A stretch of DNA of 64,000 nucleotides from Patescibacteria group bacterium (GCA_026004595.1 BPJL01000002.1:1431-65430); one strand, 5' to 3'; positions 877-49,931 are shown, counted from the stretch's first letter. Notes: generated from the letters alone by a model not told the origin. A program made the numbers and translations.

Positions 877-1782
877 TTACTGCTCTGTTTTCTTCCCGCG
901 AGCTCTTTTGATAATTTTTATGACCAGCCACGCTACTGCAACAATTGGTAAGTACACCGCAATCCAAATTCCCGCGGTCCCAATTTTTTGAAGCGTGGTA
1001 AGCATTGACCTAACTGCTTGCTTGAATATGACTTCAGGTCTCCAGGATTTCTGGGGCGTGTAAGGAAGAGCAAGCTCATCAGTTGAAATGTAGATCGTTA
1101 ATTTGCTGGTCTTGGTTGTCCCGTCCATGTATAGAAGCTGGCCTTTGTAGGAGTCTATTTGGTTTTGAACTTGGTCAATGGCATTTTGGACATCTAGCAT
1201 TTCTCTCACTGTTGTCGCTTTATCAAGTATTGCCATCATTCTTGCTCTTTGAGCTTCTAAATCGCCCAACCTTCTTTCTATGTCAATGTACTCATCTGTC
1301 ACGTCCCGGCCGTCAACGTTTTCAGAAACAACTTTCACGGAAATGGCGCGAAGGTATTGAGACATCTCATCCACTTTTTCTGAAGGAACTCTAATTGTGA
1401 GGACTGCGTTTTCTCCATATTCTGATCTGCTTATGTTTGTATTTACCACGTACCCTGCCACTTGCAGAGTTTTCTGTTTTATGGTTTCAACAGTTTCTGT
1501 TACGTTTTTGACGAGAAGTGAAAAGTTAGACTCCACAACAACTTTTCTATCGGTAACATCGGGTTGAGGAGCCGCCTTTCGTGCCGCGGGGTAGGAGTTG
1601 GAGAGTCCCGCAAGAGGAGTTACTCCTCGGTAGGAATCCATTTCCGAGTATTGCACTGCCGAACCCCCCAAAAATGTTCTGGGAAGATAAGCGAAAATTT
1701 TGCTTAAAAGAAAAACCGCGATCAAAATATTAAAAGTGAGAAGCTTGTGGGTTTTTACCCACGTAAATATTTTATTTACCAT
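877..1782 (-). CDS. Membrane protein with N-terminal TM, coiled-coil middle and C-terminal TM (DUF4349-like architecture)
   Basis: 301-aa ORF. N-terminal helix ILIAVFLLSKIFAYL and C-terminal helix IWIAVYLPIVAVAWLVIKII followed by RARGKK. Coiled-coil segment RRLGDLEAQRARMMAILDKATTVREMLDVQNAIDQVQNQIDSYKG. Confidence 0.5.
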   Translation of the reverse strand: MVNKIFTWVKTHKLLTFNILIAVFLLSKIFAYLPRTFLGGSAVQYSEMDSYRGVTPLAGLSNSYPAARKAAPQPDVTDRKVVVESNFSLLVKNVTETVETIKQKTLQVAGYVVNTNISRSEYGENAVLTIRVPSEKVDEMSQYLRAISVKVVSENVDGRDVTDEYIDIERRLGDLEAQRARMMAILDKATTVREMLDVQNAIDQVQNQIDSYKGQLLYMDGTTKTSKLTIYISTDELALPYTPQKSWRPEVIFKQAVRSMLTTLQKIGTAGIWIAVYLPIVAVAWLVIKIIKRARGKKTEQ

Positions 1783-1861
1783 GCGCTAATCTTCTTATGG
1801 GGGTGCTTTAATGTCAAGTTACAGGGATATTTTTGATGTTTTCAGTTTGCGCAAAAATATT

Positions 1862-2335
1862 TTACTCGCCGAAGGCTATAGATTTTACTATGTTTTCAAT
1901 CTCGGTTTTGTATTCGGGCGAACCTGTTTTAGTTCCTATCATAAGAATGAACGGTTCATTTTTGTATGTTGAGTAGACAAATGTGTATGTAACATCTTGC
2001 CAGCTGAATCCCGAAAGTTTTATCGCAGGCTTTCCTCTGAATTCGATTGTTTCCGGTTCAGCTCCCGATGGGTATCCCTTAGCTGCAAAGTAGTCATCAT
2101 CCATTTTGTTTCTTTCGTTTTCAACGAAGCTTTCAAAAGTTGTATTTCTGTCCAACCTGCCCACCACCCCAATGGTTACCCCGGTGCTAGGTTCTTCTTC
2201 AGGGCACATAGAAAGAAGTATTCTATATTCGCTGTCTGTGGGTGTGGGTATTGAGCATTTATTAATGTAGCTGGTCGGGTACTCAAATCTGACTCCCGTT
2301 TCTTTGTCTACGGCTGATTTTAGAAACTCTGTCAC
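1862..2335 (-). CDS. Hypothetical protein (GTG start), shares an F-[EK]-YPT module with the upstream neighbour
   Basis: 157-aa ORF starting 1 nt after the TGA stop of the preceding gene. Confidence 0.4.
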   Translation of the reverse strand: MTEFLKSAVDKETGVRFEYPTSYINKCSIPTPTDSEYRILLSMCPEEEPSTGVTIGVVGRLDRNTTFESFVENERNKMDDDYFAAKGYPSGAEPETIEFRGKPAIKLSGFSWQDVTYTFVYSTYKNEPFILMIGTKTGSPEYKTEIENIVKSIAFGE

Positions 2336-2336
2336 C

Positions 2337-2960
2337 TCAAACCTTTGCGGTAAAAGATTTATTGTTTTTTATGATTTCGTTTGTGGTTATCTCGTATTGC
2401 TGTCTGTACCCTATGTCGCCTTTGTAGTATCTTGATATTTCAAAATACTTTCCTCCAAAATCAATGTAATAGTTTCGGTAGAACCCATCGCAGTAATCGA
2501 TGGTGTAGTTCAGCGAGTCGTATTCACCCATTTTTCCCGTACCTACATTTGAGTAAGTGGCGTTTTCAGGGCAGTTTAGTTTCATTGCTTCGAGCCGAGT
2601 TGAAGCAAATTGAGAAAGATCTCTCGTCTTGGTGGAGAAGACCGTTATTGTTACTTTGTATCCTTGTATAAATTCTGCGGTGCTGTTTTTAGAGTACAAT
2701 ACTTCAACTTTTCCTTCGCCTTTTTCAGAGTTGAATGATTCTGTCAGTGTGGTGTTGGTGGGGTACTTAAATGAGATTTGAAGGGTGGTGTTTGAGTACT
2801 CCTTGTCTTCTTCGGGGGCGGCAACGGGTGTTGTTACAATCGGTTCGGCGGGGGTATTGACCACAAACCTTCTGCGATCTTCTATCATATGTTTTCTTAT
2901 CTTAAGGCCAAAAATGCTTCCAGCTATCAAGATTGCCAGTATAACAATGCCTATAGACAC
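2337..2960 (-). CDS. Hypothetical membrane-anchored protein with N-terminal TM and N-x-T/S-rich ectodomain
   Basis: 207-aa ORF. N-terminal helix IGIVILAILIAGSIFGL. TGA stop. Confidence 0.45.
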   Translation of the reverse strand: MSIGIVILAILIAGSIFGLKIRKHMIEDRRRFVVNTPAEPIVTTPVAAPEEDKEYSNTTLQISFKYPTNTTLTESFNSEKGEGKVEVLYSKNSTAEFIQGYKVTITVFSTKTRDLSQFASTRLEAMKLNCPENATYSNVGTGKMGEYDSLNYTIDYCDGFYRNYYIDFGGKYFEISRYYKGDIGYRQQYEITTNEIIKNNKSFTAKV

Positions 2961-3097
2961 CTTCTTTATGAAATTCAGTTTGTGCTGAAAAAATTACTTT
3001 CTGTTTTTTCCTCTGGCGAGGAGCGCATCAAATTCTTGTGTTCCCACTTTTGTCATGATGAGTTAATGATACATTTCATTCATTGTCCTTGTAAATG

Positions 3098-3126
3098 TTG
3101 ACAAATGACTGAAATAAATATGTAAT
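3098..3126 (+). promoter_or_regulatory. Sigma-70-like promoter TTGACA-N17-TGTAAT upstream of the small basic ORF
   Basis: TTGACA at 3098-3103, TGTAAT at 3121-3126. Confidence 0.3.
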
Positions 3127-3224
3127 TAAAATACAAATGAATAGAAATAAATTTATTTCTGCCCAATAAAAAATTTTTCAGAGCACACTGTGGTGTGTGT
3201 TGTTTTTTTAGGAGGTGATTTTTA

Positions 3225-3323
3225 ATGCCAGTAAAGAAAAGAGCACGAAAGGTTGCAAAGAAAGTCGTTAAGAAAGCAAAGAAGACCGTTAAGAGACGAG
3301 CCAAGAGAAGAGCGAAGAAGTAA
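3225..3323 (+). CDS. Small, highly basic 32-aa protein MPVKKRARKVAKKVVKKAKKTVKRRAKRRAKK
   Basis: ATG 11 nt downstream of a GGAGGTG Shine-Dalgarno. 21 of 32 residues are K/R. Ends TAA. A hairpin plus T-run (3187-3210) sits in the leader. Below the ORF-track size cut-off. Confidence 0.4.
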   Translation: MPVKKRARKVAKKVVKKAKKTVKRRAKRRAKK

Positions 3324-4037: not shown

Positions 4038-5552
4038 TTATTTGATCCCGTATATTTTTTTCGTTACCGAATCTAATTCGTGTTTAAGCTGGGGAAAAGG
4101 AACCCCCTCTCTTGCGGGGACATTTTCTAAAAACCAAAAAACTCTTTCAGAGTGTCCGTATCCTAAAGTCGGGGGCATTCCGTACTCAAGCATTTCTACA
4201 AAGTCAATATCCAAGAATTGAGCTTCGGTATCTCCGCTGTCTCTCAATGCTTGCTGTTCCTTAAACCTTTCGTATTGGTCAATGGGGTCGTTAAGCTCCG
4301 AAAATCCGTTCCCAAGCTCTCCTCCCGCGGCGATGGGATGAAACCTCATGGCTACTTCGGGATTGTTTGGATCAGATTTTGCCAGGGGCGACAAGAATTT
4401 TGGTTCATTTATCACAAAGGCAGGACCAGCGATGTCTTTTCTTGCAAGTTTCCAAAGGGCGTCAACGCCTCTTGAAAAATTCATGTGTTTATTTACTTCA
4501 ATGTGATTTTTTTCTAAAACTTTTTTGAGCTTTCCGAAATCATTATCAAAGATGTCAATGTCAAATCTTTTTTTCAGTATTTCTGAGTAGTCAATGATTT
4601 CCCACTCGTTTCCAAAGTCAACCTCAAATCCTTTCATGCTGAATTTTGTGGTTCCGTAAACTTTTGTTGTTACGTATCTGAAAAGGTCTTTGATAAATTT
4701 CATTCCGGCATTCCAGTCGGCGTACGCCCAATAAAATTCCATAGCAATATGTTCGGGAAGATGTTCGTCTGAAATCCCTTCGTTTCTGAAGCGGGGGCCT
4801 ATCTCGTAAACTTTTTCATATCCTCCGCCGATCAGGCGTTTAAGATAAAGCTCTTGGGATATCCTCAAGTAGAAATCTTGGTCTAGGACGTCCATGTGTG
4901 TGACAAAGGGGTTGGCGTCTGCTCCTCCGGGAGTTGTTTCCAAAACCGGAATGTTCATTTCAAGAAAACCGTGTTCTTTGAAGAAGTCTCGGTGGGCTTC
5001 CCAAAATTTGGACCTCCTGATAAATCTTTGGAAAACTTCGGGGTTAAGATTTGTGTCAATGTATCTGCGTCGCAGTCGCGTTTCTTTGTCTTTCAATCCG
5101 TCCCACGCGTCCGGAAGAGGCCTAAGGGATTTTGTGAGTATTCTGATTGAGGTAACTTCAACCGATATCTCTCCACTTTGAGTCTTGGTTAAAATGCCTT
5201 TTCCCTCGGCAAAATCTCCGTTGTCAAGAAGACCCAGATCGGCAAACCCTATTTCGCTGTTTTGGTAGTTGGGATTAAGAAGGGCGGCTTCCTTTATATA
5301 TAATTGTATTTTTCCGGTGGCGTCTTTGATATCTATAAAAGCTAATTTTCCATGTTTTCTGATTGAAATTATTCTTCCGGCGGCTGTTACCTCTTTTCCT
5401 TCAAGCTCTTCGTAATTTTCGTGAAAGGTAATGTTGGGATGCGACTTGTTTGATACGGCGGGGTATGGATCGATTCCAAGTTCTCTAAGTTTGTTGAGCT
5501 TGTCTATTCTTATTTGTCTTAATTCGGAGAGAGTCGCCATTAACCTATTCAA
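4038..5552 (-). CDS. lysS: Lysyl-tRNA synthetase, class II
   Basis: 504 aa. N-terminal OB-fold anticodon domain. Class II motifs (FRNEG, GGGYEKVYEIGP, ELGNGFSELNDP). Confidence 0.9.
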   Translation of the reverse strand: MNRLMATLSELRQIRIDKLNKLRELGIDPYPAVSNKSHPNITFHENYEELEGKEVTAAGRIISIRKHGKLAFIDIKDATGKIQLYIKEAALLNPNYQNSEIGFADLGLLDNGDFAEGKGILTKTQSGEISVEVTSIRILTKSLRPLPDAWDGLKDKETRLRRRYIDTNLNPEVFQRFIRRSKFWEAHRDFFKEHGFLEMNIPVLETTPGGADANPFVTHMDVLDQDFYLRISQELYLKRLIGGGYEKVYEIGPRFRNEGISDEHLPEHIAMEFYWAYADWNAGMKFIKDLFRYVTTKVYGTTKFSMKGFEVDFGNEWEIIDYSEILKKRFDIDIFDNDFGKLKKVLEKNHIEVNKHMNFSRGVDALWKLARKDIAGPAFVINEPKFLSPLAKSDPNNPEVAMRFHPIAAGGELGNGFSELNDPIDQYERFKEQQALRDSGDTEAQFLDIDFVEMLEYGMPPTLGYGHSERVFWFLENVPAREGVPFPQLKHELDSVTKKIYGIK

Positions 5553-5564
5553 TCAGAAATGGCT

Positions 5565-6035
5565 TTAATAATCAATCTTGAGAATGGTGTAAATGAGTTT
5601 TCCCATCGGGGCTTCAACCTCTATTTTATCTCCGACTCTTTTGCCGCAAAGCGCGGAGCCGAGAGGTGATTCGTGAGATATTTTATTTTCCAAGGGATTG
5701 GCTTCGGGGGCTCCAACGATGTGGTATTCAACTTCTTCGCTGTCCATTCTTACTCTTACTTTAGCGCCCACCCCAATGACTTCTTTTGAGCCGTTGTCCT
5801 CGGATATCACAGCGTTTTTGAGAAATTCCTCAAGCTCCGTGATTCTTCCTTCAATGTATGACTGCTCCTGCCTGGCCGCGTCATATTCGGAGTTTTCGGA
5901 TATGTCGCCCATCTCACGGGCTTCTTTTATTCGTCTGGCAACTTCAGGCCTTTTGACATTTACAAGTTCTGACAGCTCGGCCTTTAGTTTTTCCAAACCC
6001 TCTTTTGTTACATATATAGTGTCTTTTTTATTCAT
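5565..6035 (-). CDS. greA: Transcription elongation factor GreA
   Basis: N-terminal coiled coil plus C-terminal FKBP-like domain; aligns to E. coli GreA from MNKKDTIYVTKEGLEKLKAEL. The longest ORF extends to a GTG at 6071; the ATG at 6035 is preferred. Confidence 0.85.
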   Translation of the reverse strand: MNKKDTIYVTKEGLEKLKAELSELVNVKRPEVARRIKEAREMGDISENSEYDAARQEQSYIEGRITELEEFLKNAVISEDNGSKEVIGVGAKVRVRMDSEEVEYHIVGAPEANPLENKISHESPLGSALCGKRVGDKIEVEAPMGKLIYTILKIDY

Positions 6036-6109
6036 ATGTTTCGTGAAGCCTTCTAAAAAAAAGTTCCCCACCTAGTTTTTTGGGGGAGATAGCGCTTCGA
6101 ACGGAATAC

Positions 6110-6137
6110 ATTATACATAATTAGGTTGGGGTGTCAA
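6110..6137 (-). promoter_or_regulatory. Consensus sigma-70 promoter TTGACA-N16-TATAAT for the greA-lysS operon
   Basis: On the minus strand, TTGACA at 6137-6132 and TATAAT at 6115-6110; ~70 nt upstream of greA. Confidence 0.5.
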
Positions 6138-6209
6138 ATGGACAAGACTCTAGGTTATTGTTGTAGTTATGGGAAATAATGGCGGTTGAGGGGTGATATA
6201 ATGCAGGGA

Positions 6210-8018
6210 ATGTCATTTGATTTTATACCAAAAAAAGAGTGGAATTTTGGGCTTTTATATGATAGGTACGATAAAAAAGCCCTAGAAGAGGAGCTGGAGG
6301 ACATAAAGAAGCGAAATCTGGAGTTTGCGGCGAAATGGCGGGATAGAAAAGATTATTTAGAAAATCCGGAAATATTGAAGCAGGCGCTGGATGAACTTGA
6401 GCAGATAGAGGCTACTATAGGAACCTCTGGAAAGCCCGGTTATTATTATTGGCTTAAGTACCAGCTTGATCAGCAGAATACCGAAATCAAGGCGGAGCTT
6501 GGAAAAATTGAGGATTTGGGAACTTACTTGGAGAATGAGCTTGAGTTTTTTAGACAGAATATTTCAAGAATCCCTGTAGAGAAACAGCAGATGTTTTTAG
6601 ATTATCCGGGCTTGGCAGAGTATAGGCACATGTTGGAAAGAATGTTTATCGCGGCAAAGTACTTGCTAAGCGAGCCCGAGGAAAAGATATTGAATTTGGT
6701 ATCAAAGACTGCTCACGGAAACTGGGTGGAGATGATTTCTGATTTTCTATCCAGAGAAGAAAGAAAAGTATTAAATGAGGATGGCTCGGAATCGGTAAAG
6801 AATTTTTCTGAAATTTTAGACACTATAAATAGTATAAATAAAAAGGTTCGGGATTCGGCGGCAGAAGCTTTGAATGACATTTTTGCCAAGGTAGCGCCTG
6901 TGGCGGAGTATGAGCTAAATTCGGTTTTGCATAATAAAAAGGTATCGGATGAGTTGAGGGGATTTAAGAGGCCTGATGAGTCAAGGCATGTTTCGGATGA
7001 TATTGACAGCGAGGTTGTTGACAGTTTGATTGAGGCAGTCAGTTCAAGGTTTGACATTTCCCAAAGATATTACAAGCTAAAGGCCAAACTGCTGGGCGTG
7101 GAAAAACTCCAATATCATGAGAGAAACGTGGATTTTCAAAAACCGGATGTGAAGTATGATTTTGAGAAATCGGCGGGGTTGATTTCCAAAGTGTTCGCGG
7201 GGCTGGACGAGGAGTTTAGGGGGATTTTTGAGAATTTCTTGAAAGAGGGTAGGATTGATGTCCACCCTAAAAAAGGAAAAGACTCGGGGGCTTTTTGCGT
7301 GCACATGGAGAAAGACCTGCCGGTTTTTGTGATGTTGAATCATACAGGAAGACTTAACGATGTGACGACATTGGCTCATGAGATGGGGCATGCGATTAAT
7401 TTTGAGCTGATGAAGAAGAAGCAGAACGCTTTGAATTGCGGAACTTTTACCTGCACGGCTGAAGTTGCAAGCACTTTCATGGAGGATTTTGTTTTGGATG
7501 AATTGGAAAAGGATGTTGATGACGAGGGAAGATTGGCGATTTTGATGGAAAGATTAAATGGTGATATATCGTCAATTCAGAGGCAGGTTGCATGCTACAA
7601 CTTTGAGAAGGATCTTCATACTATATATAGGAGTGAGGGGTATTTGTCTTTGGAGAAGATCGGCGGGTTATTTTTAAAGCATATGGGGGCTTATTTGGGT
7701 GAAGCGGTTGAGCTTTCAAAGGGTGCCGAAAACTGGTGGGTTTATTGGAGCCACATCCGAAGCTATTTTTATGTTTATTCTTACGCGTCGGGTGTAATGA
7801 TCTCAAAAAGTCTGAAAAAAATGGTTGAGGACGATTCGGCTTTTGTGAAAAAGGTAAAGAGGTTTTTGGAATTGGGGACTTCTGTATCTCCCAGGGATGC
7901 TTTTGGTGAGCTGGGGGTGGACATTGGGGAAAAGAGTTTTTGGATGAAGGGGCTTGAAGAGTTGGATAGGATGTTGAGTGAAGCCGAGGGGTTGGCGGGG
8001 AGGTTGGGGAGGGGTTGA
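6210..8018 (+). CDS. pepF: Oligoendopeptidase F (M3B metallopeptidase)
   Basis: HEMGHAINFE zinc motif; ~600 aa with M3 family layout. Start taken at ATG 6210, 7 nt after the extended -10 TGATATAAT (6194-6202). The ORF track begins at 6186. Confidence 0.85.
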   Translation: MSFDFIPKKEWNFGLLYDRYDKKALEEELEDIKKRNLEFAAKWRDRKDYLENPEILKQALDELEQIEATIGTSGKPGYYYWLKYQLDQQNTEIKAELGKIEDLGTYLENELEFFRQNISRIPVEKQQMFLDYPGLAEYRHMLERMFIAAKYLLSEPEEKILNLVSKTAHGNWVEMISDFLSREERKVLNEDGSESVKNFSEILDTINSINKKVRDSAAEALNDIFAKVAPVAEYELNSVLHNKKVSDELRGFKRPDESRHVSDDIDSEVVDSLIEAVSSRFDISQRYYKLKAKLLGVEKLQYHERNVDFQKPDVKYDFEKSAGLISKVFAGLDEEFRGIFENFLKEGRIDVHPKKGKDSGAFCVHMEKDLPVFVMLNHTGRLNDVTTLAHEMGHAINFELMKKKQNALNCGTFTCTAEVASTFMEDFVLDELEKDVDDEGRLAILMERLNGDISSIQRQVACYNFEKDLHTIYRSEGYLSLEKIGGLFLKHMGAYLGEAVELSKGAENWWVYWSHIRSYFYVYSYASGVMISKSLKKMVEDDSAFVKKVKRFLELGTSVSPRDAFGELGVDIGEKSFWMKGLEELDRMLSEAEGLAGRLGRG

Positions 8019-37263: not shown

Positions 37264-37299
37264 CACCTTTTTGCCGCGAGAGCTGATATAATTTACTTG

Positions 37300-38217
37300 A
37301 TGCTGAAAACCTGCCCTCAGTGTGGAAGAAATCTAACAAAAGCTGATAACTACTTTTGCCATGTTTGTGGAGCAGTTACAGGTGGAGGTGCGGCAAGATC
37401 TAATAAACGTTACTATTTGGGTTCCAAAACTTCTTTAAAAGATGGTGTTTCTTTTAGTTTATCGCCTTGGGGGTTTTTGGCAGGTGTTTGTGTTTTTATT
37501 TTATTGGTGGGTTCAGCTATTCTCTCATCTCGCATAGCCAGCAAGGCCGCGGATAGGGGAAGTTTAGTTATTTCAAACATGTTTTCTTCAAATAATTCTC
37601 CTGCCCCCCAACAGGTAAGTAAAAATGAAAAATCTTCGGTTCCGGACAGCTTCTCGCTCGCTTCTGACATTGAGAACTTTGTTCCATTTCAGACGGATTT
37701 TGTAGTCGTATTTTATTCCCATTTAGATTTTTTGGACGCTCTTAAATTTTTTAAGGTAGAAAATACGTTTGATGTGGATTTTCTCAAAAATCTAAACCGC
37801 CCTCCCTATGTGATAATTCTAACCCCGCCGGCGGGGGAAAATGAGGAGTTGAGAACAGCATTGCTGCTGTTTCCTGTTGAGAAACCGGCCGAGGGTGATT
37901 ATTCCAGATATGTTGATAAGGAATTTTCAGAAACAATTTTAGATAAAGCTGTTGTTTTGGCGAATGATCCTGGTGTTGCTGAAGAAATTACCCAAGTATC
38001 CAAAGGACTCCACAAGGGAATAGGGCTTAATTCATACTATATGAATATAAGACGTAAAATTCCGGAAAATGTGAGGTCAAAGATTTTTGTCTTTTCTAAT
38101 ATTGGTGTAGGATATGTTAACCAGCTTGATACCGACAAGATGCCGGAATCAGTAAAAATGCTGGTTATAAATTATATGAAATCCGGCAGTTATTACGGAT
38201 TTGTAGAATATGAATGA
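37300..38217 (+). CDS. Hypothetical membrane protein with an N-terminal zinc ribbon (CPQCG...CHVCG) and one TM
   Basis: ATG 37300 lies 7 nt after TGATATAAT (37284-37292). Overlaps the downstream Lon-like ATPase gene by 8 nt. Confidence 0.5.
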   Translation: MLKTCPQCGRNLTKADNYFCHVCGAVTGGGAARSNKRYYLGSKTSLKDGVSFSLSPWGFLAGVCVFILLVGSAILSSRIASKAADRGSLVISNMFSSNNSPAPQQVSKNEKSSVPDSFSLASDIENFVPFQTDFVVVFYSHLDFLDALKFFKVENTFDVDFLKNLNRPPYVIILTPPAGENEELRTALLLFPVEKPAEGDYSRYVDKEFSETILDKAVVLANDPGVAEEITQVSKGLHKGIGLNSYYMNIRRKIPENVRSKIFVFSNIGVGYVNQLDTDKMPESVKMLVINYMKSGSYYGFVEYE

Positions 38218-39283
38218 CGCGGCAGATAAAAAAGATTTTTTGTTCGATGAGCTTCGAACTCTAACCCAGAAGGTTAACGAAACCGAGGGAATCCCCGAGA
38301 TTTTAGCCGACCGCTTGAAGCAGATGATTCAGAGGCTTGATAGGATGGCGAACCTTGGCCACTACGCCACGGAGTACGATACATTGGCGAGGTACATCGG
38401 GATAGTTACATCAATTCCTTGGGTAAAGAAAACAGAGGACAGGATGGATTTACAGATAACAAAGCAGATTCTGGATGAGCATCACTACGGTATGGAGTAT
38501 GTAAAAGAGAGAATATTGGAGTATATGTCCACATTGATTTTGTTAAAGAAGAGAGGCAAAGAGGTACTACAAAGGGCGCCCATTTTGCTTCTTGTAGGGT
38601 TGCAGGGAGTTGGAAAGACAACTCTTGCTATGTCAATTGCCGAGGCTCTCCAGAGGAAATTTGTACGAATAGCTATGGGAGGGATCGGTTCAACATTAGA
38701 GATAAGAGGCAGGAGCAAGGCATTCCCTGAGTCGGAACCTGGGCTAATTATAAAAGCACTCATAAACGCCGGGGTAAAGAATCCTGTGATACTTCTTGAT
38801 GAAATTGAAAAGGCCAGTGGAGAGGCCGGTCTGCAGTCAGACATTATGGCAGTTCTATTGGAGATACTTGACCCCGCTCAAAATGTTGCCTTCAGGGACC
38901 ACTATATTGATTTTCCTGTTGATTTATCCGAAGTGATGTTCATTTGTTCCGCGAATAATCTTGGTCCCATATCAACCGCCCTTTTAGATAGGATGGAGGT
39001 AATTAAAATGCCTTCTTACAGCGATGCGGAAAAAATGGTAATTGCGCGTGATTACATACTCCCAAAGGTTATAGAAAATTCGGGTCTCAAGCCTGAGGAG
39101 TTAATAATTGACCCCAACTTGTGGCCAGGAATAATTAGGCCGTTTGGTTATGATTCGGGCATAAGAAGCTTAACCAGAACTTTAGAGTCAATATGTAGAA
39201 AGGTGGCAAGGGAAATTGTGGAGGGCAAAGTTGATAAAGTTTACCTCACTGCCGATAACCTAAAACACTATCTCCCAAAATAG
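38210..39283 (+). CDS. Lon-like AAA+ ATPase module lacking both the Lon N-terminal substrate domain and the S16 protease domain
   Basis: Aligns to the Lon helical-linker plus AAA+ region: SIPWVKKTEDRMDLQITKQILDEHHYGMEYVKERILEY, Walker A GLQGVGKTTL, Walker B ILLDEIEK. Ends where the Lon protease domain would begin. Confidence 0.7.
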   Translation: MNDAADKKDFLFDELRTLTQKVNETEGIPEILADRLKQMIQRLDRMANLGHYATEYDTLARYIGIVTSIPWVKKTEDRMDLQITKQILDEHHYGMEYVKERILEYMSTLILLKKRGKEVLQRAPILLLVGLQGVGKTTLAMSIAEALQRKFVRIAMGGIGSTLEIRGRSKAFPESEPGLIIKALINAGVKNPVILLDEIEKASGEAGLQSDIMAVLLEILDPAQNVAFRDHYIDFPVDLSEVMFICSANNLGPISTALLDRMEVIKMPSYSDAEKMVIARDYILPKVIENSGLKPEELIIDPNLWPGIIRPFGYDSGIRSLTRTLESICRKVAREIVEGKVDKVYLTADNLKHYLPK

Positions 39284-44256: not shown

Positions 44257-45264
44257 TTAGGAGCGGATTTCAGCGTCTATAAATTCATCCAATCCTCCGT
44301 CGAGGATGTAGTCAGGGTCCGAAGATTCGACTCCGGTTCTCAGATCTTTTACTAGTTTATAGGGATGTAAAACGTAGTTTCTAATTTGATTCCCCCATCC
44401 GGGCATCTTATATTCTCCCTTTGCTTTCTTTTTTTCTTCCTCGATTTTTTCCTCTTCCATTTTGTACAGCTTTGATCTTAATATTTTCAGCGCTTTCTCT
44501 CTGTTTTTTCCTTGGAACCTTTCTTCTTGGCATTCAACAATAATTCCGGTGGGTTTGTGCTTAAGACGCACGGCAGTCGAAACCTTATTTACATTTTGTC
44601 CTCCGCTGCCGCCGGATCTGAAAAAATCCCATTCAAGATCTTCATCTTTTATCTCAATATCTCCCAAATCATCATTTATCAATGGAATGACCTCTACTAG
44701 GGCGAATGAAGTTTGGCGGAGGTTATCAGCATTGAAGGGGGATTGCCTTACCAATCGATGAACGCCTGATTCACGTTTTAAAAATCCATAGGCGTATGGA
44801 CCTGATATTTCCAGAGTTGCTGTCTTTATCCCCGCTTCCTCACCGGGGGTCATACTTACTTCATGCCATTCCCATCCGGTCTTTTCTGCGTATCTTTTAT
44901 ACATTCTCAAAAGCATGGCTGCCCAATCCATGGCTTCCGTTCCTCCCTGGCCGGCGTGTATTGTTACAATTGCGTCGTTTCGGTCGTGTTTATCCTTGAA
45001 AAAGGTTTTTAATTCAAGACGGTGTAGTTCTCGTTCAAAATTTTCTTTGTCCCCTTCCTCTGCCATAAGCTCAAGCATCTCATAATCTTCTATGTCTTTT
45101 TTTAACGCCGCCAGATCTTTTGCTACCCCGGTGCCTTCCTCCCAGTTTTTCCATGTAGATTCATCAACGACTCTTTCCTCAAGAGCTTTTATTTTGGCCC
45201 TTTTTTCTTCAATAAAAAGCCCTTCTTTAAGTTGTTTAAGCCGTTCTCTCAATGTTTCTTCCAT
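44257..45264 (-). CDS. prfB: Peptide chain release factor 2 (no programmed +1 frameshift)
   Basis: SPF tripeptide (QSPFNADN) and GGQ ([12 protein letters not shown]). Single uninterrupted 335-aa ORF. Confidence 0.88.
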
Positions 45265-45289
45265 AGCTATGAGATTATACCACCGGTTG

Positions 45290-47857
45290 TTACTCCAGAG
45301 CCTCTAGTCCTAAAAGAATTTGGTCGCCGGGGTTTATTTCTTTTCGAAGCATTTTAGTAGCAAGGTAGGTTTCAACCGTGTCTTCTATGAGACGAGCCAG
45401 CGGACGGGCGCCCCATTCAGGAGAAAAGCCCCTTTTGGCAAGTTCGTCAACAAGCTCCTGTTTGAATCTTATGTTGACTCCCTTTTCACTTGCCATTTCT
45501 TTGACTCTATCCAGCATAAGAGAAGTTATTTGCTTAACGTTTTCTTCAGATAGGGGGTTGAAAATTATGATTCCTGAAAATCTATTTAAAAACTCGGGAG
45601 CGAACCTCTCTCGTACTTCTGACATTGCCTTCTCTCTCATTTTCTCAAGAGTCCCATGTTCTGCAAAAACCTGCTGAATTGCCTTTGTTCCCACATTGCT
45701 TGTGGCAATTATTATTGTGTTCGTAAAATCTATTTTCATTCCTGTGTTGTCCGTTAGTTTTCCCTCATCTAAAACCTGCAGAAAGGTTAAGAGAATGTTA
45801 GGATGAGCTTTTTCTATTTCGTCCAGCAGAATTAGTGCGAATGGCTTACTCCTCACCATATTTGTCAGCAGTCCCTTTGTTTTGCCGTCGGGTGTTCCGA
45901 GCAGACGATTTATGCTGTCTACCTGTTGATACTCGCTCATATCTAGCCTGATCATATTATTTGTGTCTCCGAAGTAGTGCTTGGCCAAAGCTTTTGCAGT
46001 TTGAGTTTTTCCTATTCCGGTTGTTCCTACAAATAGAAAACTTGCGATGGGCTTGTTTTCGTCACGTATCCCCGCCCGCGCCCTTCTTAAGGCGGTAGAT
46101 ATTTGTCTGACAGCTTCGTCCTGGCCCACGATCATTTTTTTCATCGTTTCCTCAATAGAAAGGAGCTTTTGAGCCTCGTCTTGAGAAATAGTTTCAACGG
46201 GTATACGAGTCATTTCAGCAATCTCTGCGGCTATGTGGGTTGAAGCAAGAATGGGGGAATTTTCCACAACCCTCGCAGCTGTTCGGTTAAGTATGTCTAT
46301 TGCTTTGTCGGGCAGTACTCTTTCGTGCATTAGTTTTTCTGATAGTTCAACCGTTTTGACCAGGGCGGGGTAAGTTATGGTTATATTGTGTTTGGCTTCA
46401 AGTTTGTCGGCTTTTGTTTCAAGAATTTTTACTGTTACATCTTTCGGCAATTCATCAATTTCAACAATATGGAAAAGACGGGAGAAGGCTCCATTAGGTT
46501 CTATGTATTTTCTGAAATTTGAAATTGTTGTTGCCCCGATGAATTTTATTTTTCCTTCTGAAAGATGGGGTTCCAGTATGGTGTAAATTGTTGATGTTTC
46601 TGCATTAGAATCTCCTGCGCTGGCAACGACGTTATGAATTTCGTCAATGAATAGAATAATATCTCCTGATCCTTCAACCTCTTCCATCACCTTTCTTAGG
46701 TTCTGTGCTATCATCCCTGGAGTTGTAGCGCCGGAAATGAATCCCCCAATGTCCAGACCAACCAGCCTGTGGTTGCTTATGGATTTGTATTCGTTGCTCT
46801 CGATTATGGCTTGGGCGATACCTTCTATCAAAGTTGTTTTTCCGCTTCCGGGCTCTCCGACGATAAGCACATTTTCTTTCTGTCCGGATAGTATTTGGGC
46901 GATTGTTTTAATATCCTCATCTCTGCCTAGTATTTTTTTGTACTTGCCACGCAAAATTTCTTTTGTAAAGTCACGGGACATTGAGTCAAGAGTAGGCGTG
47001 ACCCTTCCAAGCATCCCTCTTCCTATGCCGCCGGTGAAAATCAATTGGTAATCGTCCTGCCAGAGAAAAAGTCTATTTCTCTCATTTCTTTTATCGTTTT
47101 CCCATTCAACGGCCCTCGCTACATATTTCATAGAACTGTTTAGCGATGCTAATATAATGTCAATTTTTGGGATGTTGTTAAGCACGGCAAGAAGAAGATG
47201 ATCCAGCTCAATATACTTTGACTTGAGTCTTAAAGCGTCAGAAAACATTGCCTGTCCCAAAGTTGATTGTTGTATTACAGGGGCTGATTTCAATTTTTCA
47301 AAAAGCAGATCCTTGTTTATTTCCGATCGGATAAGAATAAGTTTTGAAATGTCCTGTTCAAAAAGCCATTTAATTCCCTTGGTTTGATCTATAGTCAGCT
47401 TTTCCAAACCTTTTAGTACATTGTTTCTGCAACTTGCCTTGAAGTTTTCTTTTGTATTTTTTTGGACTCTAACTCTTGGTGTATCTCGGTTCCTAATAAG
47501 GTAAAGAAGATAAAATGCAATGAAATAAGCTACAGTATAATCCAAACCCTTGTATTTTAAAACAGCTACGGGAGCCGCAAACCACCCAATTATCGCTAGG
47601 GAAGATATTATGACAAGCAGAAGCATATATACCAGTCCGAAAGCTATCCAAAATATTCTTATGACAAATCCCGCAAGCCTTCCAACTATGGTGTAGTCGC
47701 CGAAAAGGGGAACAAAGAGAAGTTGAAGGTTCGTTGAAAACGAGATCTGGTAGTTCACAAGTATAATAAGATGTGAAAATACTTTTATTATTCTCCTTGG
47801 AGCTGATAAAAGCCACCAGAATATAAACTCGTGGGGCATCCTGGGCAGGGATTTCAT
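45290..47857 (-). CDS. Membrane-anchored Hsp100/Clp-family double-AAA+ ATPase. ClpB-like: no IGF/IGL ClpP-docking loop and no long M-domain
   Basis: N-terminal ~130 aa with 3-4 hydrophobic helices, then Clp-N-like repeats ([10 protein letters not shown]). D1 has [14 protein letters not shown] and ILFIDEIH. D2 has [19 protein letters not shown] and [11 protein letters not shown]. Starts 13 nt after the sipW stop. Confidence 0.8.
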
Positions 47858-47869
47858 AACATAAGGATA

Positions 47870-48301
47870 TCAGACTCGGACAACCTTTTGTATTGTGAGT
47901 TGATGAAAAACGATACCTATTCCAAAACCCGCGCACCAGTATAGGAGAGGCAGCCCCGAAGCTTTTATTATGTAATGTGTCGGAAGGGAAAAAACGGCCT
48001 TCCCGACAATCTCTTTTTGTACAATTGGGTATGGATCTTCGTTTTGATTGTTGTCGCCTTTGGTTATGAAAAGGTCGTTCCTAATCTCAACTATTCTATG
48101 CGTTATGTATGTATTGTTTTTTTTGAATGCCGCTATGTCGCCAATCTTTAACCTGCGGGCGGGTATCACGATTACTATGTCGCCTTTCCGTATATAGGGT
48201 TCCATAGAATCACTTTTAACGTACAGTGTTTTTATCCCACCTACATACGCCGCTAGAATAACCAGTGCTATTAAAATTAGTGTGTAATACCTGCCCGTCA
48301 T
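47870..48301 (-). CDS. sipW: Signal peptidase I of the archaeal/ER type (S26B, SipW-like)
   Basis: 143 aa. N-terminal TM. SDSMEP serine box and THR histidine box; short, without the bacterial LepB box architecture. Confidence 0.75.
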   Translation of the reverse strand: MTGRYYTLILIALVILAAYVGGIKTLYVKSDSMEPYIRKGDIVIVIPARRLKIGDIAAFKKNNTYITHRIVEIRNDLFITKGDNNQNEDPYPIVQKEIVGKAVFSLPTHYIIKASGLPLLYWCAGFGIGIVFHQLTIQKVVRV

Positions 48302-48328
48302 GTCTGATCAAATATTTTAATGTGCCAA

Positions 48329-48907
48329 TTACTGTTGTACTGATTCGAATTCAAAATCAAACATAGCCGATTTTCCCTGTTTTGTAGCGCTTAGGTTATC
48401 TACTGAGAACCTGAGCACCAAAGGTCTCGTCTGACCCGGGTTGATTTGCCCGACGCCTATTCCCTCGGTCTTCCATTTTATTATCGTTTTCTTGGCTAAG
48501 CTAAGTCCGATTTCTCCTGAGTCAAGAACGCCGTTGTTGTTTGCATCATTCCATTCAAATATCTCTACATAAATATCTGATCTTAAATCAGCTGGGTCGT
48601 TTGCTGTTTCGTAATAGGCTTTTGAGGTTACGGATATTTTTAATGATCCGTTGTTTATAAGTTTCAAGGGGTAATCAGCTGACCACGTTTGTCCGATATT
48701 AGAGAAAGAAGGGCCTGGTAACTCATCAACCAGATTTGTGGGCTCGGTGCCGAGAGGCAAATCTTTAAGAAATTTTAAGTCAGCACTGCCCACCGAAAAA
48801 GTAGAGCCGAGAACCTTTGCTTTGTCTGTAAATGCGGCTAAAGTTACACCCGTTATCAAAGATACCAGGGTTAAAATAACTAATGCGTAAATAATCTTTT
48901 GTTTCAA
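48329..48907 (-). CDS. TasA/CalY/camelysin-family secreted protein with a SipW-cognate signal peptide
   Basis: Signal peptide then LAAFTDKAKVLGSTFSVGSADL, matching the TasA N-terminal signature (AAFNDxxxxxxTFxxGTLDL). 192 aa. Immediately upstream of sipW. Confidence 0.65.
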   Translation of the reverse strand: MKQKIIYALVILTLVSLITGVTLAAFTDKAKVLGSTFSVGSADLKFLKDLPLGTEPTNLVDELPGPSFSNIGQTWSADYPLKLINNGSLKISVTSKAYYETANDPADLRSDIYVEIFEWNDANNNGVLDSGEIGLSLAKKTIIKWKTEGIGVGQINPGQTRPLVLRFSVDNLSATKQGKSAMFDFEFESVQQ

Positions 48908-48909
48908 TT

Positions 48910-49593
48910 TTATTCACCCCCTTTCAACAAATTTTGGGCACGCATGCTTGAGAAAGATTTGTCGCATACTATTAGGTGATCGATAAGGTTTATGCCGACA
49001 ATTTGGCAGGCTTCTTGAACTCTTTTAGTAATTTTCACATCTTCTGTGCTGGGGTTAGGCTCTCCAGACGGATGGTTATGGGCAAGAATGATAGATACGG
49101 CATTATCCATTATTGCCGTTCTTATAATTTCACGCGGGTGTATGAGGGTCTCGTTTATTGTGCCCGCGGACACCAAGCTTTTTTTGATAGTGATGTTTCT
49201 TGAATTTAGGGATATTAAATACAAGTGTTCAGTTTCTTTTCCAAAGAAATTGGGTTTGACGTATTCATAGGCGTCATTTGGTCCTGACACTTTTACACTT
49301 TGTCTTGGAGGGTTGTTATACCTATTGATAAGCTCTTTTATAGCCGAGAGTCTTGCGGCCTTAACCTTTCCAAGATATTTGTTTCTTATCAATTTTTGGA
49401 CAGGGGTATTTAAAAGGGTATAAAGAGATCCACTTTCCCTAATTATTTTTTGTGAGAGTTCCAGTACCGAGCTGCCTTTGCCGCCGCTTGATAGGATTAT
49501 GGCTGTAAGTTCGGCGTCAGACAGTATATCGGCACCTTTGTTAAGCAGTTTTTCTATTGGTCTGTCTTCTTCTGGAAGTAAAGACATTTTCAT
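48910..49593 (-). CDS. radC: RadC-like JAB/MPN domain protein
   Basis: HhH-like N-terminal part and JAMM motif ILAHNHPSGEPNPSTED; its stop overlaps the start of the TasA-like gene. Confidence 0.8.
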   Translation of the reverse strand: MKMSLLPEEDRPIEKLLNKGADILSDAELTAIILSSGGKGSSVLELSQKIIRESGSLYTLLNTPVQKLIRNKYLGKVKAARLSAIKELINRYNNPPRQSVKVSGPNDAYEYVKPNFFGKETEHLYLISLNSRNITIKKSLVSAGTINETLIHPREIIRTAIMDNAVSIILAHNHPSGEPNPSTEDVKITKRVQEACQIVGINLIDHLIVCDKSFSSMRAQNLLKGGE

Positions 49594-49655: not shown

Positions 49656-49931
49656 ATGTCCGAAATTGGTGTTAAGATAAGGGAGATAAGAAATTCACAC
49701 CGCCTTTCGCAATACAGATTTGGAAAAAAATTGGGAATTTCAGGTAAAACTGTTTCCGCTTATGAAACGGGAAGAGCTATTCCGCCCGAGAAAATAATAA
49801 ACCTGATCTCCGAAGTTTTTTCGTGCCCGATCATCTATATGAACAAGCAGGAGAAATGCCGTTTGAAAGACCAAATAGTCACTATTAAAAGCTTTATAGA
49901 TAATTTGGAAAAAGTGTTGTTCGGTAGTTAA
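49656..49931 (+). CDS. XRE-family HTH transcriptional regulator
   Basis: IREIRNSHRLSQYRFGKKLGISGKTVSAYETG helix-turn-helix; 91 aa; divergent from radC. Confidence 0.7.
   Translation: MSEIGVKIREIRNSHRLSQYRFGKKLGISGKTVSAYETGRAIPPEKIINLISEVFSCPIIYMNKQEKCRLKDQIVTIKSFIDNLEKVLFGS

Follow-up and report, generated by a model that had tools for sequence, protein, structure and literature searches.

The stretch of DNA analysed here, a window of 64,000 nt from a Patescibacteria group bacterium (BPJL01000002.1:1431-65430; all coordinates are positions in this window), carries a row of five minus-strand genes that runs from radC to prfB and encodes, between these two, a TasA-like secreted protein, an archaeal-type (SipW-like) signal peptidase I and an 855-amino-acid (aa) ATPase with two AAA+ modules (Table 1). 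We give a probability of roughly 55% to the interpretation that a TasA-type donor-strand fibre module lies here beside a housekeeping, membrane-tethered Hsp100 variant, which probably remodels or gates at the membrane. Their pairing resembles conserved gene order more than it does an energised machine dedicated to the fibre; the TasA/SipW part is a system of an already known kind, and the ATPase variant is the new element.

The gaps between radC, the TasA-like gene, the peptidase gene, the ATPase gene and prfB are, in that order, 2, 27, 12 and 25 nt, and the open reading frames (ORFs) of the first four are packed as the initial annotation had described. Because these short gaps contain no promoter-like or terminator-like site (total counts of such sites equal those in shuffled sequence), a single transcript from radC to prfB is plausible. 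On the 5' side of radC lie rpsM-rpsK-rpsD-rpoA-rplQ-rplM-rpsI and a divergent gene for a helix-turn-helix (HTH) protein, and ftsK is found on the plus strand downstream of prfB. By its sequence the source bacterium belongs to candidate division WWE3 (Katanobacteria, Patescibacteria); at the N-terminus, its ATPase shares 63-67% identity with those encoded by the WWE3 genomes GW2011_GWC2_41_23 and RAAC2_WWE3_1.

Table 1. Genes and features of the radC-prfB region and other window features mentioned in the text.
Feature	Position	Strand	Remarks
radC	49593..48910	-	227 aa; Pfam RadC E = 3e-42; NF000642 221 bits (cutoff 180)
TasA-like (TasA-superfamily) subunit	48907..48329	-	192 aa; TTG start
SipW-type signal peptide, aa 1-24	48836..48907	-	TIGR04088 and hydrophobic segment aa 5-23
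Putative donor strand, aa 25-45	48773..48835	-	AFTDKAKVLGSTFSVGSADLK; aligns to TasA AFNDIKSKDATFASGTLDL
Ca2+-binding-type loop, aa 119-132	48512..48553	-	W-N-D-A-N-N-N-G-V-L-D-S-G-E; profile match to SdrD B-repeat motif WEDTNKNGxQDxxE
Archaeal-type (S26B, SipW-like) signal peptidase I	48301..47870	-	143 aa
Membrane-anchored Hsp100-like double-AAA+ ATPase	47857..45290	-	855 aa
N-terminal polytopic membrane domain, aa 1-125	47483..47857	-	Hydrophobic; motif LLFxPLFGDYTxxGR..F..R
Clp N-domain fold, aa 136-260	47078..47452	-	Confirmed by fold comparison
AAA+ module D1 and lid, aa ~300-535	46253..46960	-	Walker A GEPGSGKT, Walker B ILFIDEIH
D1 pore-loop position, aa 378-381	46715..46726	-	T-T-P-G; K-Y-R-G in ClpB/ClpC
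AAA+ module D2 and D2-small, aa 536-855	45290..46252	-	Walker A GTTGIGKT, sensor-1 in ATSN, Arg finger in FLNRF, sensor-2 in GARPL
D2 pore-loop position, aa 658-662	45872..45886	-	G-K-T-K-G with a 4-residue deletion; G-Y-V-G in ClpB/ClpC
prfB (release factor 2, RF2)	45264..44257	-	335 aa; TIGR00020 424 bits (cutoff 370)
HTH gene	49656..49931	+	91 aa; HTH_3 (Xre-type)
AAA_2/Lon_lid gene and overlapping ORF	37297..39283	+	357-aa protein; 306-aa ORF

An Hsp100-like ATPase lacking pore-loop tyrosines

The 855-aa protein is built like a class I Hsp100/Clp ATPase. Pfam reports AAA, AAA_lid_9, AAA_2 (E = 1e-50) and ClpB_D2-small (E = 4e-22), the sequence matches ClpC at E = 5e-133, the match to ClpA forms a single continuous stretch, and a Clp N-domain precedes two AAA+ modules that carry Walker, sensor and arginine-finger motifs, the second of them with its D2-small domain. 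The scores miss the cutoffs of the established equivalogs by about two-fold: 551 against 1232 for ClpB (TIGR03346), 496 against 993 for ClpA (TIGR02639) and 466 against 885 for TssH (TIGR03345).

The departures from the class I pattern concern three elements. The M-domain of ClpB and ClpC is absent: in the alignment to ClpC (6em8), residue 535 of the query runs straight on to residue 536 and ClpC residues 407-470 are skipped. The ClpP-docking loop of IGF/L type is absent as well, since ClpC FAGFGGSSDGQD, at the position of ClpC FAGFGG, aligns to a shortened FAEHGT, and the loop at this position is short in all aligned members of the ATPase family. Finally, the pore-loop positions of both modules carry no aromatic residue, neither in the window's protein (Table 1) nor in any of the 45 full-length family members of the alignment, several of which have the D2 pore loop deleted. 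In the same 45 sequences the Walker A and B, sensor-1, arginine-finger and sensor-2 elements of D2 are essentially invariant, and D1 is degenerate in few. Having no M-domain, the ATPase would be free of DnaK-coupled disaggregase control; having no ClpP loop, it should not be the partner of a protease; and lacking the aromatic pore-loop residues, it is unlikely to thread polypeptides as ClpB does. The initial annotation had proposed a membrane-embedded, ClpB-like unfoldase: the membrane anchor and the Hsp100-like character are borne out, and the comparison with the ClpB unfoldase went too far, given the missing M-domain and pore-loop tyrosines.

The N-terminal 125 residues match no Pfam family. 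In an AlphaFold2 model they form helices at aa 8-38, 57-103 and 105-123 with a predicted local distance difference test (pLDDT) score of 89, and an index-free search of 1.84 billion representative proteins found the domain in about 100 representative clusters, mostly within double-AAA+ proteins of 780-900 aa. That the hydrophobic N-terminus could be an artefact of ORF calling is ruled out by this conservation together with the confident model; the membrane topology of the ATPase is a predicted one. No relation of the domain to the membrane segments of FtsH, Msp1/ATAD1 or Torsins was found by sequence or by fold, and no description of this Hsp100 family in the literature searched. The family is thus apparently an undescribed Patescibacteria variant of Hsp100.

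The membrane domain also occurs as a stand-alone gene of 110-150 aa, which overlaps or abuts a downstream gene with an N-terminal hydrophobic stretch of its own. In one locus (L103) it occupies positions 1009-1350 and overlaps a Clp-like AAA+ gene at 1343-3253; in another (L109) it occupies 296-655 and abuts a Clp-like AAA+ gene at 656-2089; in a third (L110), at 487-825, it overlaps a downstream fragment at 809-1552 that is too short to classify. Since this split-gene form pairs the two, membrane domain and ATPase belong together.

A divergent TasA-like subunit

The 192-aa protein had been assigned to the TasA family, and we accept this in a looser form, mainly from structure and profile alignment, as the sequence models are marginal. 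TIGR04088, the model of the SipW-dependent signal, is passed narrowly (20.0 bits against a cutoff of 19, over aa 9-40) and matches 16 of 40 orthologues at E <= 0.01. The score for the TasA/camelysin family of Pfam (PF12389, Peptidase_M73) is 18.2 bits, below the gathering score of 22.5; 5 of the 40 orthologues match this model at E < 0.01 and none reaches the gathering threshold. The signal-proximal AAF[TN]D signature pointed out by the initial annotation is confirmed, AAF-x-D being near-invariant across the 40 sequences. Cleavage is predicted after Ala24 (GVTLA/AFTD, the slash marking the cut), with Phe at P2' as in TasA.

In a profile comparison (hhalign) with a Bacillus subtilis TasA sequence entered by hand, the signal peptide and N-terminal strands align with a probability of 71% and E = 3.8e-5, and TasA TWA/AFNDIKSKDATFASGTLDL is paired with TLA/AFTDKAKVLGSTFSVGSADL of the TasA-like protein. 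An AlphaFold model based on the 40 orthologues (pLDDT 90) shows a beta-sandwich, with a jelly-roll fold similar to that of TasA, behind a signal helix and a segment near residues 28-32 that is poorly ordered. The mature N-terminal stretch (aa 25-45) is extended and of low pLDDT in this monomer model, and by analogy with the TasA fibre structure (PMC9674648) it may serve as a donor strand. Among the matches of the fold comparison are archaeal TasA-superfamily fibres built by donor strands, namely the bundling pilus AbpA (7ueg), DUF1102 tubes (9bac), the cannulae that CanX forms in Pyrodictium (9h8b) and the Sulfolobus 0406 thread (7pnb). We therefore place the protein in the TasA superfamily, though outside PF12389, as a member that is divergent and far smaller; fold, profile alignment and signal model agree with the original assignment, and the Pfam threshold does not. 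TasA homologues in Patescibacteria have been noted before (PMC9245690).

The loop at aa 119-132 reads W-x-D-x-N-x-N-G-x-x-D-x-G-E and fits the Ca2+-binding motif of staphylococcal SdrD B-repeats. Among the orthologues W119, D121 and E132 are invariant and G126 nearly so, and the loop is predicted to bind metal. The putative donor strand also holds an invariant Asp (D28), and the body an invariant Lys and invariant or near-invariant Glu residues (E62, K82, E132, E148). That such a set might lock subunits together through an intermolecular isopeptide bond, in the manner of N35-K74-E56 of Clostridium perfringens BsaA, is pure speculation. Overall, the TasA-like homologues are 50-100% identical among the matches listed; the ATPase N-terminus is only 30-38% identical in most related species.

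A second TasA-like ORF, or any other ORF with a SipW-type signal that could stand for TapA, was found neither in the 64-kb window nor in the flanks of related loci, in keeping with the earlier remark that nothing TapA-like is recognisable in the operon.

A signal peptidase of the S26B type

The 143-aa protein passes the model for archaeal-type signal peptidase I (TIGR02228, 86 bits against a cutoff of 51.85) and matches both Peptidase_S24 and S26 of Pfam. It scores 52 bits against the 190 demanded by the equivalog of Bacillus SipW (NF046067) and is therefore not an orthologue of that enzyme; the name SipW-type, under which it had been annotated, is right in the S26B sense. The protein has one N-terminal transmembrane segment, an SDSMEP motif with Ser32 and a THR motif with His68, these two being the catalytic residues predicted when the sequence is read.

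Gene order within WWE3

A pattern scan over GTDB, with one genome for each species, yielded 40 loci, of which 38 reach far enough upstream to be informative. The TasA-like gene lies directly upstream of the ATPase gene, or is parted from it only by SipW, in 32 of the 38; one of these loci (L009) has an opposite-strand gene between SipW and the ATPase. All 32 belong to the WWE3 clade of the ATPase tree. The proposed synteny in relatives thus holds for the TasA-ATPase pair and less so for the peptidase: SipW stands between the two in 14 of the 32 species, so that an ATPase gene next to sipW does recur in relatives, and it is absent there in 18. In these 18 loci the distance from the TasA-like gene to the ATPase gene is 34-435 nt (usually below 100) and the AAF-x-D signature is retained. 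Since a SipW-type signature is kept without an adjacent SipW, the peptidase must presumably be encoded elsewhere in these species. When three TasA-like homologues were looked up, the same block appeared each time, and the ATPase was adjacent in every case where the contig was long enough to include that position.

The block reads rpsM...rpoA-rplQ-rplM-rpsI / HTH / radC - tasA-like - [sipW] - AAA+ - prfB / ftsK, and the conservation of its junctions was counted over the WWE3 clade. Expressed as kept over informative cases, rpsI > radC is found in 26/28, radC > TasA in 29/31, TasA > ATPase in 33/37, ATPase > prfB in 23/31 and prfB > ftsK in 14/23. The junction between TasA and the ATPase is therefore no tighter than that between radC and TasA, a pair for which no functional link is expected, nor than that between rpsI and radC. 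In two WWE3 sub-lineages (L010/L014 and L035) orthologous ATPases sit in unrelated contexts, without TasA or prfB. Because the whole housekeeping block is frozen, conserved adjacency within it is not evidence of shared function, and the synteny does not demonstrate a functional coupling of TasA and the ATPase.

Some further observations concern the genes of the block and of the window. The HTH protein, whose position between rpsI and radC is conserved across WWE3, also has weak matches to antitoxin and RmrA-type models. The prfB gene is a single ORF, and the CTTTGA programmed-frameshift site is absent 5' of its start (positions 45200-45420, minus strand), unlike in most bacterial RF2 genes. 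Two loci of one WWE3 metagenome-assembled genome (JAAZNL01; L015 and L020) encode ATPases whose N-terminal halves are 93% identical over up to 520 aa compared, probably reflecting a strain mixture rather than a paralogue. Elsewhere in the window, a 306-aa ORF without a Pfam match is overlapped at its end by the gene for a ClpX/HslU-like AAA_2/Lon_lid protein of 357 aa, in which no zinc-finger domain was reported.

The ATPase outside WWE3

Beyond WWE3 the ATPase has other neighbours. Three genomes of other Patescibacteria (L039-L041) show the order secA-[membrane protein-nfo]-ATPase-prfB-x-ftsE. In two of these (L039:4141-10556 and L041:5399-10523) the ATPase gene comes between secA and prfB, which are neighbours in Bacillus, and ftsE follows a short way downstream. 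A metagenome scan seeded with a distant ATPase subfamily gave 60 loci, 2 from WWE3 (TasA-ATPase pairs, no SipW) and 58 from other lineages. These 58 loci gave no TasA or SipW match, and neither did the three non-WWE3 genome loci for which upstream sequence was available.

The commonest arrangement, present in 39 of the metagenome loci, is dprA - 118-aa protein - ATPase - 185-aa protein - topA. The placing of the ATPase between dprA and topA is seen among loci L047-L100, where for example L053:4533-4883 directly precedes an ATPase gene at 4890-7418. The 118-aa protein is N-terminally anchored, belongs to no Pfam family and has the motif GPCLSN...WVxDIxHxPR...DDLxENQC...HFVELD; the 185-aa protein, also N-anchored, usually lies 3' of the ATPase gene. 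In another group a 205-aa protein is encoded upstream of the ATPase, with a lipoprotein cyclophilin between them in three loci, and prfB and ftsE follow where sequence is available.

Counted by lineages (WWE3 and at least two others), the most widespread neighbour is prfB, which lies 3' of the ATPase gene in the 23 WWE3 cases given above and in three non-WWE3 contexts (L038-L041, L044, L091). An ATPase that is found radiation-wide is not a TasA accessory. The proposal of a dedicated, energised fibre system is not supported, both on this distribution, with no TasA or SipW nearby, and on the unexceptional conservation of the TasA-ATPase junction.

Comparison with known systems

The arrangement recalls the tapA-sipW-tasA operon of B. 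subtilis (TasA fibre, PDB 8aur), in which an archaeal-type signal peptidase is likewise encoded beside a secreted jelly-roll subunit, the signal likewise ends in A/AF-x-D, and the mature N-terminus of the subunit resembles that of the WWE3 protein in its donor strand. The differences are considerable. The WWE3 locus has no TapA-like gene, and the subunit gene comes before that of the peptidase, which in 18 of the 32 related species is not adjacent at all. The subunit is smaller (about 168 aa when mature, against about 234), carries an SdrD-type Ca2+ loop and stays below the PF12389 threshold, and the genes lie in a ribosomal and housekeeping block, whereas the B. subtilis operon is a regulated matrix operon. 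In C. perfringens sipW-bsaA-bsaB-bsaC a SipW peptidase is again paired with TasA-like subunits, and the efficiency of oligomer release depends partly on ATP-driven type IV pilus genes (PMC11580942). We found no other precedent for energy-assisted export in the TasA family; in C. perfringens, however, the helper resembles a type IV pilus or type II secretion system and not an Hsp100, and the BsaA subunits are locked by an Asn-Lys isopeptide bond.

For the ATPase, ClpB, ClpA, ClpC and ClpV/TssH share the Clp N-domain fold, the two AAA+ modules, AAA_lid_9 and ClpB_D2-small. Unlike these class I Hsp100s, the WWE3 protein has a polytopic N-terminal membrane anchor, and both pore-loop tyrosines are replaced or deleted throughout its family; the lack of an M-domain sets it apart from ClpB and ClpC, and that of a ClpP-binding loop from ClpA and ClpC. 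FtsH, Msp1/ATAD1 and Torsins also tether an AAA+ ring to a membrane through a hydrophobic N-terminal segment, but their segments are unrelated, they have a single AAA+ ring, and FtsH has a protease domain. Torsins are related to Clp D2 modules and likewise lack aromatic pore-loop residues.

Interpretation

In the interpretation that we favour, a fibre module beside a housekeeping ATPase, the 192-aa pre-protein would be exported by Sec and cut after Ala24 by the SipW-type peptidase, which is encoded next door here and presumably elsewhere in the roughly half of WWE3 species where it is not adjacent. The freed N-terminal strand would insert into the jelly-roll of the next subunit, and by such donor-strand exchange the protein may polymerise, as TasA does, into an extracellular fibre, probably stabilised by the Ca2+-type loop. 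The ATPase, with its Clp N-domain, intact D2 motor and mostly intact D1, would probably form a hexameric double ring, which its own conserved membrane domain would attach to the cytoplasmic membrane. It would act there on exported or membrane proteins at large, as a remodeller or switch powered by ATP and not as a dedicated TasA motor; both hexamer formation and substrates are predictions.

That the ATPase is nonetheless a component of the TasA system, powering fibre secretion, assembly or quality control in place of TapA, was the attraction of the locus, given the tight gene packing, the adjacency in most informative species and in all three homologues looked up wherever the contig allowed, the lack of a TapA-like gene in the window and in related flanks, and the C. 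perfringens precedent for ATP-driven help. We consider it improbable. The ATPase family extends far beyond the TasA-like one and has no TasA or SipW neighbour in the non-WWE3 loci scanned, the two genes are uncoupled in two WWE3 sub-lineages, and their junction is kept no better than that of radC and TasA. The rings, moreover, must be cytoplasmic, whereas donor-strand assembly takes place outside the cell, and the pore-loop tyrosines needed for unfolding are absent; the characterised fibres of the TasA superfamily assemble extracellularly without ATP (PMC9674648, PMC9245690). Doubt may also attach to the fibre itself, in that the 192-aa protein could be a monomeric Ca2+-binding surface or adhesin-type beta-sandwich that shares only the SipW-type signal and the jelly-roll fold with TasA. 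The poor PF12389 scores of the orthologues, the absence of TasA from the top 50 Foldseek matches and a sequence conservation that is unusually high for a surface fibre would fit such a protein. Its mature N-terminus, however, aligns to the TasA donor strand, and the lack of structure there in the monomer model is what one would expect if this strand complemented an adjacent subunit; we regard a non-fibre role as unlikely.

Several observations weigh against the view that the ATPase is a mere housekeeping neighbour. Within WWE3, its adjacency to TasA survives rearrangement, radC and the HTH gene having been lost in two loci (L032, L034) and prfB displaced in two more (L030, L037). Where SipW is present, the distance from its stop codon to the ATPase start is constant at 12 nt, which suggests that the expression of the two is coupled. 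In other lineages too, the gene upstream of the ATPase encodes a small signal- or anchor-bearing protein and often overlaps the ATPase gene, the gap after the 118-aa protein being usually -3 to +8 nt. Over all loci an N-terminal signal or anchor is found in 75 of the 98 genes directly upstream, as against 188 of 907 other genes in the same loci (21%). Besides SipW these upstream genes represent at least five exported families (the TasA-like, GPCLSN-motif and 205-aa proteins, the cyclophilin lipoprotein and a cupredoxin-like protein), and since the families are unrelated to each other and to the TasA-like protein (hhalign probability below 7%), the pattern has arisen more than once.

These points would suit a general module, spread across Patescibacteria, in which the ATPase works with the small signal or anchor protein encoded directly upstream: the TasA-like subunit, with or without SipW, in WWE3, and elsewhere the 118-aa GPCLSN protein, the 205-aa protein with or without the lipoprotein cyclophilin, or, in the split-gene form, the cupredoxin-like protein. 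The membrane domain would hold the signal or anchor helix of the client, and ATP would drive the release, extraction or transfer of the client at the Sec site; force might instead be transmitted outward, as by MacB- or FtsEX-type machines. The proximity of secA, prfB and ftsE in other lineages fits this picture, and the missing pore-loop tyrosines argue for a job other than classical disaggregation. Against it, loci within one lineage are not independent, and when distinct context types are counted the enrichment is only borderline (6/14 against the 21% background, p ~0.05). Small exported proteins are, at that same 21%, not rare among the other genes of these loci, and in several contexts the upstream gene is cytoplasmic (nfo, secA, dprA or one for a TetR-like protein). 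The pattern hints that the ATPase may be linked to exported proteins at large, and such a module seems to us possible, though far from probable. Somewhat more doubtful again is the specific proposal that a membrane Hsp100 peculiar to Patescibacteria and devoid of pore-loop tyrosines serves the exported proteins encoded upstream, with the TasA-like subunit, accompanied by SipW or not, as its client in WWE3, and that ATP hydrolysis in the cytoplasm thereby controls fibre release, processing or polymerisation.

Significance

Patescibacteria are tiny, mostly episymbiotic cells whose surface structures are thought to mediate attachment to the host, and a TasA-type subunit that is well conserved across the sampled WWE3 lineages is a concrete candidate for an attachment structure. 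If the exported proteins encoded upstream were indeed partners of the ATPase, they would together represent a new class of envelope machine; and if the ATPase controlled the TasA-like client, this would add to the TasA superfamily an energy-driven step not known for any of its fibres, and it would couple an AAA+ motor to the cell surface in a new way. The ATPase is in any case the more interesting object. Its branch of the Hsp100 family challenges the assumption that all double-ring Clp ATPases thread polypeptides, and with it the part that a reduced proteostasis network plays at the membrane becomes tractable to study.

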